Part shown: piece by piece, positions 15,225 to 17,252 of the stretch | How positions within the stretch are numbered: position 1 is the stretch's first letter | Layout: each line of letters starts with the position of its first letter | Assembly: GCA_963832165.1 (NCBI GenBank) | Contig: CAWHTE010000007.1 | Coordinates: 288,001-352,000 of the forward strand | Length of the DNA: 64,000 nt | Direction of reading: 5' to 3' | DNA from: an uncultured delta proteobacterium | GTDB lineage: Bacteria > Myxococcota_A > UBA9160 > SMWR01 | Made by a program: the position numbers and the translations under genes | The notes under the pieces: generated by a model | Told to the model about the DNA's origin: nothing | Database searches by the model: none | The model's input: only the letters and a program-made list of their open reading frames with translations

Positions 15225-15860
15225 GTGCTCCACGCGCTGTGGCGCCGCCTCACGCGCAGATCGCGCGGCGAGCCGATCGTCGTGGTGAGCGGCCTGCCGC
15301 GCTCGGGCACCTCGATGATGATGCTCATGCTCGACGCGGGCGGCGTCGAGATTCTCGCCGACGAAGTGCGCGCAGCCGACGTCGACAACCCGAAGGGCTA
15401 TTTCGAGCTCGAGCGGATCAAGCACCTCGAGACGGAGACGGACAAGTCGTACCTGCGCGCGGCGCGCGGCAAGGCCGTGAAGGTGATCTCGTTCCTGATC
15501 AAGGACCTGCCGGACGAGAACGACTACCGCGTGCTGTTCATGCGCCGCGATCTCGACGAGGTGCTCACGAGCCAGCAGAAGATGCTCGACCGGCTCGCGA
15601 CCGCGAACCCGAACGCCGGCGATGCGCCCTCGGTCAAGGAGGCGTTCCGCAACGACATCGCGCGCGTGCGCGTGCTGGGCCGGACGCGTGCGAACTTCGC
15701 GCTCTGCGAGATCCACTACAAGGACGCGATCGCGGATCCGGCCGCCGTGTGCCGGACCGTGAATGCGTTCCTGGGCGGGCACCTCGACGAGGCCGCGATG
15801 CACGCCGCGATCGACGCATCGCTGTACCGGAACCGCGGTCGCAAGGAGGCCGACTCGTAG
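15225..15860 (+). CDS. Sulfotransferase family protein
   Basis: PAPS 5'-PSB loop [18 protein letters not shown] and 3'-PB-like [11 protein letters not shown]. Confidence 0.88.
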
Positions 15861-15870
15861 AGTCGGCCGA

Positions 15871-15899
15871 CGCGCAGCGAGCCGTAGGCGAGCGAAGGC
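15871..15899 (+). repeat. Dispersed REP-like repeat, copy A (partial)
   Basis: CGCGCAGCGAGCCGTAGGCGAGCGAAGGC matches the copies at 23781, 44640, 45471 and 59721. Confidence 0.7.
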
Positions 15900-15955: not shown

Positions 15956-15977
15956 GGTGAGGTCCGGCTCGAAAAAC

Positions 15978-16045
15978 CGGGTGATTTCCGGTGCTTGCAG
16001 ACCCGCGACCCGGCCCTGGGGCCCGCACCCGCGCTGCTAAGCACC
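15978..16045 (+). ncRNA. SAM-II-class riboswitch candidate (long L3 loop)
   Basis: P1 CGGGT/ACCCG; conserved (T)GATTT; TTGC pairs with GCTAA (bulged U); GGTGC pairs with GCACC. Lies in the 5' UTR of a methionine biosynthesis gene. Confidence 0.75.
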
Positions 16046-16064
16046 ATAAGAAAGCGGGAACAGC

Positions 16065-17252
16065 ATGAGCAAGCGCCCCGATCCTCCGGGCGACTCGACG
16101 CGCGCCGTGCACGGCGGCGAGCGGGCCCACCAGGCCACCGATGCGGTGACCACGCCCATCTATCAGACGTCCACGTTCTGGTTTCCCGACTCGAAGACGC
16201 TCGCGGCGTACCAAGAAGGACGCGCGGTGCGCGACGAGTATGGCCGCTACGGAAACCCGACCTGGCGCGCGGTCGAGCGCAAGCTCTGCGAGCTCGAGGG
16301 CGCCGAAGCCGCGGTGCTGTCCGCGTCCGGCATGTGCGCGGCCACCACGCTCTTCCTCGCGCTGCTGCCGCGCGGCGGCCACCTGATCGTGACGAGCGAC
16401 TGCTACCGGCGCACGCGCCAGTTCATCGAGCAGTACCTCACCAAGCTCGACGTCGAGACGACCGTGATCGAGCCCAGCGACACCAAGCAGCTCGCCGACG
16501 CGATCCGGCCTACGACGCGCCTGTTCTTCACCGAGTCGCCCACCAACCCGTACCTGCGCGTGATCGACGTGGCGGAGGCCGCGCGCATAGCGCACGCACG
16601 CGGCGTCGAGGTGGTGATCGATTCCACGTTCGCCACACCCGTGAACCACCGCGCGCTCGCCGACGGCGCCGACTACGTGATCCACAGCGCGACGAAGTAT
16701 CTCGGCGGCCACAACGACCTGCTCGGCGGCGTCGTGCTCGGCAGCGCGGCGCAGGTCGCGCCCGTGCGCGACGCGATCGGCGTGCTCGGCGGCGTGATCG
16801 ACGCCCATGCGGCCTACCTGCTCCTGCGCGGGATCAAGACGCTCGCGGTGCGCATGGAGCGGCACAACGCGAACGGCTTGCGCGTGGCGACCTGGCTCGA
16901 GGCGCACCCACGCGTGCGCCAGGTCTGGTATCCGGGGCTTCCGAGCCATCCCGATCACGGCATTGCCGCACGCACGATGCGCGGCTTCGGCGGCGTGGTC
17001 ACGTTCGAGCTCGACACCTCGATCGAGGGCGCGTTCCGCTTCACGGACGCGTGCAAGATCCCGTACATCGCGCCGAGCCTCGGCGGCGTCGAGAGCCTGA
17101 TCGAGGTGCCCGCGCTGATGTCGTTCTGGGACCGCACGCCCGAGGAGCGCGCGGCGCTCGGAATCCGCGATTCGCTCGTGCGGCTGTCGCTGGGCATCGA
17201 GGACGCGGACGACCTGATCGCCGACCTCACCCAGGCGCTCGAGCAGATCTGA
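16065..17252 (+). CDS. metB: Cystathionine gamma-synthase / trans-sulfuration PLP enzyme
   Basis: [38 protein letters not shown] lysine [18 protein letters not shown]. Confidence 0.88.

Follow-up and report, generated by a model that had tools for sequence, protein, structure and literature searches.

The present analysis concerns the leader of a plant-type cystathionine gamma-synthase (CGS) gene in a 64,000-nt window from an uncultured delta proteobacterium, the window being the whole stretch of DNA that was analyzed. The element in this leader is a conserved pseudoknot of the SAM-II/V fold, more than chance would give. Judged from sequence it would be a variant of that known kind, and its invariant ligand-contact change, additional 5' helix and position away from the SD appear to be new in a SAM-II/V-fold candidate. 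The reading that we favor, with a probability of roughly two in three, is a SAM-sensing OFF switch that would lower translation of CGS sterically and without pairing to the SD. About 180 natural sequences are in hand for what amounts to an order-wide riboswitch candidate family undetected by Rfam 15.

The core, all on the forward strand, is built from P1, in which CGGGU (15978..15982) pairs with ACCCG (16001..16005), the L1 triplex strand GAUUU-CC (15983..15989, holding SAM-II G8, A9 and U10-U12), the P2 5' strand GGUGC-UUGCA-G (15990..16000, with C15994 at SAM-II position 19, then U20, U21, G22 and C23) and the P2 3' strand C-UGC-U-AA-G-CACC (16034..16045, with U16038 as the adenine-binding U44 and G16041 at the A47 position). 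On re-reading, the coordinates of every element listed in the first-pass annotation were correct and its SAM-II-type H-pseudoknot is borne out by covariation; P2, which it had placed at 15990-98/16036-45 with one bulged U, is indeed there, but extends two pairs further (A15999-U16035 and G16000-C16034) to make 11 bp around the bulged U16038, and this long helix is also present in the unconstrained fold. Across 60 sequences 94.9% of 900 P1 and P2 cells were paired, a value that none of 500 shuffles reached, compared with 24–49% in slid registers, and two-sided changes occurred at 6 of 15 pairs, a count that 3 of 500 shuffles reached. P1 had two-sided changes at four of its five pairs with 85.3% of cells paired, and P2 was paired in 99.7% of cells over 10 pairs, so that the proposed check for covariation upstream of met genes in relatives came out positive for P1 and the 11-bp P2 together. 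In the distal five P2 pairs there were 64 G-U cells against 5 A-C cells, a bias that fits an RNA read from the mRNA (+) strand. Predicted folding energies were −14.9 kcal/mol for P2 alone and −14.3 kcal/mol for P0 and P1, and the single-strand fold of the stretch was not unusual against shuffles (z −1.06 to +1.12), so the case for the element rests on conservation.

Upstream lies a sigma70-type promoter (+ strand; −35 TTGACG at 15927-32, −10 TACGCT at 15950-55, 17-nt spacer between the boxes), as had been annotated at 15927-55. A consensus promoter scan of the locus returned 0 promoters although the −35 and −10 boxes are present, and a TTGAC-N16-18-TAnnnT promoter was found in 162 of 182 leaders, against a shuffle mean of 0.8 and maximum of 4 (200 shuffles). 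Where present, it is mostly positioned 26–30 nt 5' of GAUUU. Transcription would start near 15962, and the promoter position puts this putative start at the conserved 5' segment A. When a loose SAM-II-like pattern was combined with a P1 requirement, the only site in the whole 5.5-Mb genome was this locus. Directly 5' of the promoter is an intergenic REP-like repeat (window 15872-15899) with 138 copies at ≤3 mismatches in the window's genome and a similar copy 5' of metK; its high depth in public reads comes from many contigs. Further upstream a 211-aa ORF (15225-15860, +) without an NCBIfam match carries the motif GLPRSGTS, which we take to resemble the PAPS-binding loop of sulfotransferases. 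Public reads (contigs only) reached shares no higher than 0.10; for the most part they were DNA-like and derived from relatives.

No SAM family was found at E≤10 when 901 and 106 bases of the locus were scanned with Rfam 15. RF00521 was over its cut-off in 0 of 41 genomes, RF01726 was at E≤1 in 0 of 40, and RF01826 was found in 0 of 41, the last a weak negative because its control genomes were silent too. The SAM_alpha, SAM-II_long_loops and SAM_V models, which the first-pass annotation had named as a check, therefore do not detect the element. Sub-threshold RF00521 matches in relatives (L021-L023) lacked the core, lay at other loci and were rejected. A blastn search with the leader and gene start matched in 30 of 41 genomes, and the motif was present in 18 of the 20 loci fetched, consistent with conservation of the pseudoknot in orthologous leaders. 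Pattern scans of genome and metagenome contigs gave at least 120 matches each. A covariance model built from 60 sequences matched, at E≤0.05, in 99 of 118 other same-order genomes, a few of them weakly and nearly always once per genome; the sister order gave matches in 3 of 32 genomes, all at E>0.01 and none at the CGS gene, and a phylum sample outside the order gave 1 in 127, a match to the 5' half only (G181). The motif was present in 243 of 248 pooled loci holding a CGS start, with 183 unique sequences, which is no estimate of prevalence because the pool was mostly gathered through the motif and contains repeats. When the region upstream of CGS was inspected independently in 20 same-order genomes, of which 17 had been selected as misses of the covariance model, 5 had the motif (2 of these being new) and 15 did not.

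Named records bearing the motif mostly had Myxococcota, Myxococcales or Deltaproteobacteria MAG titles, one being "isolate UBA9160", and the Myxococcota labels of this lineage support the origin that had been thought probable. Several records titled Spirochaetales, Opitutales or Desulfobacterales carried the same leader and a 65–75% identical CGS, from which we infer that these titles are mislabels; the order itself we take to be UBA9160. Among pattern matches outside the lineage, 15 were inspected by eye; most were within or overlapping long ORFs, none preceded a recognizable met gene, and they were discarded. One genome (G062) has a second strong copy (L297, G062:C105:12822-12927), located at the end of a contig where no gene can be seen after it, and bin contamination may be its source. 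In genus g39 of the same order all nine loci (L343-L351) were without the motif. Within about 45 nt of the CGS start they share a conserved box instead, AACTTGCGGAACT and then GGGA-ATT-like bases, which might be an operator or an alternative-sigma promoter. In another genome (G115, L356) the aptamer core is gone but the promoter persists, together with what is left of segment A and of the P1 5' strand, an apparent loss of the aptamer in progress. No report of a SAM-II riboswitch in Myxococcota, or of any riboswitch in UBA9160, was found in the literature searched, which lay outside subscription journals and large supplementary motif sets, and no title or abstract opening among those listed described this variant.

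The pocket is where the element both resembles SAM-II most and departs from it. Thirteen pocket bases of SAM-II are described as completely conserved (PMC3764141), and 12 of these are invariant here in all 183 unique copies. GAUUUC is invariant in 183/183, at positions fixed or favored by the search patterns, and the bases of the triples and of the adenine and sulfonium sites (U10-U12, U20-C23 and G42-A46) are likewise kept in 183/183; these bases were partly built into the search patterns, and they are the same in the blastn and covariance-model sets. The thirteenth base, position 47 (16041), is G in 183/183 unique copies, including all 125 gathered without fixing it, and in 97 of 97 CGS-linked metagenome matches, among the matches listed, for which the base was left free. 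The base opposite it is C in 171 copies, U in 10 and G in 2, and the swapped pair was never seen; G47 is thus kept more strictly than its pairing, which suggests a new selected contact. The first-pass annotation recognized the core, which stands, and overlooked this invariant change at a ligand contact. A47 of SAM-II is reported to contact the aminoacyl end of SAM (PMC3764141), and A50 of SAM-V is described as having the same position and role, with replacement by inosine, which carries a G-like Watson-Crick face, severely lowering SAM binding (PMC6061858). SAM-II is also reported to depend on the amino group of SAM as well as on its carboxyl group (PMC1273637). One metagenome match (L175/L195, 401-453, +) has a SAM-II-like core with the canonical A47 but lacks a CGS within 400 nt; the match, which overlaps open frames, may be fortuitous.

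The gene downstream (16065..17252, +, 395 aa) was identified as plant-type CGS by its best PDB match to CGS 1i41/1qgn (445 aa, 448.7 bits against 308.5 for the next), a chain that we take to be the tobacco enzyme and so of plant origin. JGI names of close homologues were mostly "cystathionine gamma-synthase", with one "plant cystathionine gamma-synthase", and among the 25 NCBIfam families shown no equivalog cut-off was reached. The earlier designation metB was accordingly right as to the methionine context, but the enzyme is not a typical enterobacterial MetB. All 183 unique copies are upstream of a CGS ortholog, which directly follows every well-supported copy with enough downstream DNA. The window genome, which is 89% complete, contains metK and metH and a MetX-like match below cut-off; searches of the same genome gave no MetA-family match, only a weak thrB-family match, no SAM-I riboswitch and no AdoMet decarboxylase of family PF02675. 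The MetX-like match (G000:C11:902496-903534, −) is in two adjacent pieces, model 3-283 and 286-350, seemingly out of frame, for which a frameshift or an assembly error is a possible cause.

The best indirect support for SAM as the ligand comes from the sister order. SAM-I was over cut-off in only 3 of 151 genomes of the class, each time directly upstream of a CGS homologue (L381 226-346, +, and L382 379-502, −, at 69–80 bits; L385 at 50.9 bits). These three homologues, all from the sister order, are 51–53% identical, and the best PDB match of the one tested was also plant-type CGS. Placement of SAM-I before homologous genes favors SAM, which we regard as the probable ligand with some confidence. 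In seventeen other sister-order genomes (L363-L379, family f13) the closer CGS ortholog has, by eye, a TTGAC-17-TAnnnT promoter that stops some 13 nt short of the ATG; the mRNA would then be nearly leaderless, with no room for a riboswitch; one further sister-order region was uninformative.

Around the core, members differ considerably. Segment A (15964..15971, +, consensus GGGUUCG) forms the 5' strand of an additional helix, P0, by pairing with segment B (16006..16013, +), and an A-rich bulge AAAAAC (15972..15977, +) lies between P0 and P1; P0 and the loss of an A-rich L3 both escaped the first-pass description of the element's extent. Segment A is present in 141 of 183 members, and 121 of those 141 form five or more of the six core A:B pairs. 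On a CDS tree of 174 members, P0 had 7 two-sided and 40 one-sided conservative changes against 63 breaks, and all 18 G>A changes in segment B kept the A:B pair and broke the rival B:C and B:D pairs. In the 40 of 183 members without segment A, segment B mostly goes instead into a P3 hairpin stem like that of SAM-V; P3 is clear in these members, whereas segment B of full-length members has A as its better partner. L298 and L299, the shortest members, possess P0 with just 3–4 nt ahead of P2. At least three A within a 7-nt window were found in the 5' bulge in 135 of 183, and at the end of L3 the last 6 nt contain at most one A in 157 of 183, the A-rich run of SAM-II having been lost; the bulge may take over the A-minor contacts that L3 makes in SAM-II. 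In the window L3 is 30 nt (16006-35) with a GGCC hairpin at 16012-23, as had been annotated, but this is not the main novelty it was taken for, since L3 varies among relatives from about 12 to more than 150 nt and hairpin inserts are also found in SAM-II long-loops rows and in SAM-V. The variable L3/P3 region (16014..16033, +) has conserved GGG(A/G)(U/C)CC and CACCCG segments, scored in 144 and 155 of 183. For the four peripheral segments A–D there are two mutually exclusive pairing schemes of similar energy; complementarity is conserved for A:D, B:C, C:D, A:C and B:D, with 0, 1, 1, 1 and 4 two-sided changes, respectively, on an approximate anchoring of the segments.

Between the end of P2 and the ATG at 16065 is a 19-nt spacer (16046..16064, +) containing the SD-like GCGGGA (16054-59), and the earlier observation that the pseudoknot stops 19 nt before the ATG, short of the ribosome-binding site, holds. 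The P2-to-ATG distance is 15–22 nt in 103 of 168 members (17–19 nt in 78) and 50–188 nt in 42. In the short class the SD-like run starts 6–10 nt after P2 in 86 of 95, typically at about 7–8 nt, and leaders are purine-rich at −9 to −7. An intrinsic terminator was rejected because U-runs occur in only 9 of 168 leaders and the sole terminator-like match is on the minus strand inside the CDS. The CCCGC:GCGGG pairing that had been suggested as an expression platform is possible in the window genome and is a feature of its genus, but over 43 lineage representatives it showed no covariation and SD-L3 duplexes were no better with their own partner than when swapped (−8.52 and −8.66 kcal/mol); anti-SD pairing by L3, P1, segment A or the core was rejected by the same own-versus-swapped test (43 representatives, all p>0.1). 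Constrained folding gave SD accessibilities of 0.52 free and 0.55 bound, no consistent change, which counts against the favored reading. A hidden upstream start in long-leader members was also rejected, there being no common in-frame start near P2. The 42 long leaders are mildly C-rich (C 0.35 and G 0.30, C>G in 34 of 42; CDS 0.32/0.31). Regulation has been reported for a preQ1 pseudoknot placed as much as 10 nt 5' of the SD (PMC10018353), and S. meliloti SAM-II switches are described as affecting RNA stability and acting at a distance (PMC9373788).

Steric blocking at the 5' edge of the ribosome-binding region is proposed as the simplest remaining mechanism, supported by the tight P2-SD spacing, the rarity of U-runs and the lack of conserved SD pairing, and for the short-leader majority we rate it at slightly better than even odds. 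Under it, transcription would start near 15962 and P0 and P1 would fold first, with the GC-rich 11-bp P2 largely pre-forming. SAM would then intercalate at the bulged U16038 and GAUUU would dock into the P2 major groove, with the sulfonium held by U15986/U15996. How G47 would stand in for A47 we can only infer: the amino-acid end of SAM might be recognized at the major-groove edge of the C15994-G16041 pair, or through Mg2+ or water. With its end about 8 nt 5' of the SD, the locked triplex would be hard for the 30S subunit to unfold, and synthesis of CGS, the enzyme committing carbon to methionine, would fall. The inosine effect at A50 of SAM-V and the dependence of SAM-II on amino and carboxyl groups alike speak against SAM in this role. 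Simple steric blocking does not account for the 42 of 168 long leaders (50–188 nt), for which a different mechanism would have to be invoked, for example standby sites, RNA stability or Rho.

The pocket change could instead reflect a changed or relaxed specificity, for decarboxylated SAM, another adenosyl-sulfonium compound, or SAM and its analogues alike. The one invariant base to have changed is the very one that contacts the aminoacyl end, conservation of G47 is stricter than that of its pair, which is never swapped, and spermidine-sensing SAM-I variants offer a precedent (PMC10853860); we nevertheless consider this unlikely, since the association is with CGS only and no polyamine genes, PF02675 was not found in the 89%-complete genome, and SAM-I precedes homologous genes in the sister order. 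The wider proposal that the element is an undescribed SAM-II-derived class, with a pocket end rebuilt by A47 to G, a new or broadened ligand, and natural steric control upstream of an unpaired SD, is rather doubtful.

Alternatively, the SAM-bound RNA might act on transcription or mRNA fate (Rho termination, 5' stability) by switching between A:B with C:D and A:D with B:C, which could make sense of long, mildly C-rich leaders in 42 of 168 members and of two exclusive peripheral pairings at similar energy, and which has a parallel in the effect of S. meliloti SAM-II on RNA stability and its action at a distance (PMC9373788). This appears quite unlikely, given that selection for translational control would yield the modal ATG spacing of 17–19 nt, the excess of C is small, no two-sided change was seen for A:D, and members without segment A or C keep the core. 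Finally, the element might not sense a metabolite, being a protein-binding or stabilizing 5' RNA or a DNA operator that is SAM-II-like by descent or chance. No Rfam SAM model scores it and P2, stable alone at −14.9 kcal/mol, may not need a ligand; an unpaired GAUUU and a bulged U invariant exactly at ligand positions make this reading highly improbable. A DNA operator or sigma54 site (compared by eye with what we assume to be the sigma54 consensus spacing) was rejected because of the G-U bias of 64 to 5 over A-C and an arm spacing that varies from 17 to 160 nt.

The family offers a direct test of whether a SAM-II/V pocket works without A47/A50, which structural and atomic-mutagenesis work called essential, and either outcome would be informative, yielding a second way to read the amino-acid end of SAM or a new ligand. 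The conserved 7–8-nt offset from the SD is a natural candidate for steric blocking, so far shown with engineered spacers, and homologous enzymes within one class are found under three regulatory states: this RNA, SAM-I and a near-leaderless mRNA.

Comparison with SAM-II (RF00521, SAM_alpha; metX structure 2QWY) rests on the RF00521 consensus line and PMC3764141. Shared with it are the H-type pseudoknot, the GAUUU/UUGC/GCUAA core, the bulged U44, a promoter close upstream of P1 and a methionine-synthesis gene downstream. In contrast to SAM-II, A47 is here a G able to pair with position 19, P2 is a continuous 10–11-bp Watson-Crick helix, L3 is not A-rich, there is an extra 5' P0 helix, there is no terminator and the SD is outside P2. 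Because position 47, the A-rich L3 and the model threshold all failed, we do not file the element as a SAM-II member despite its fold. The SAM-II long loops (RF01726) share the core, a longer L1 or L3 with optional hairpin inserts and, in some rows, C at position 19. Of its 162 alignment rows 103 were covered; with the 23 that had no core left out, a count by eye over the other 80 gave A47 in 79, U in one and G in none, and the A-run before UGCUAAA is kept there (PMC2864571). SAM-V (RF01826; 6FZ0) has a P3 stem-loop inside L3, as do our members without segment A, and translational control, as is proposed here; it differs in having A50, an A-minor linker and an SD buried in P2a (PMC6061858), where the present element has G at the A50 position, a long P2a and an SD about 7–8 nt downstream. 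The proposed mechanism is closest to that of the type I preQ1-I pseudoknot, in which steric blocking by a compact pseudoknot at most 10 nt from the SD has been reported (PMC10018353); there the ligand and fold are different and the spacing was engineered, whereas here it is natural and conserved.
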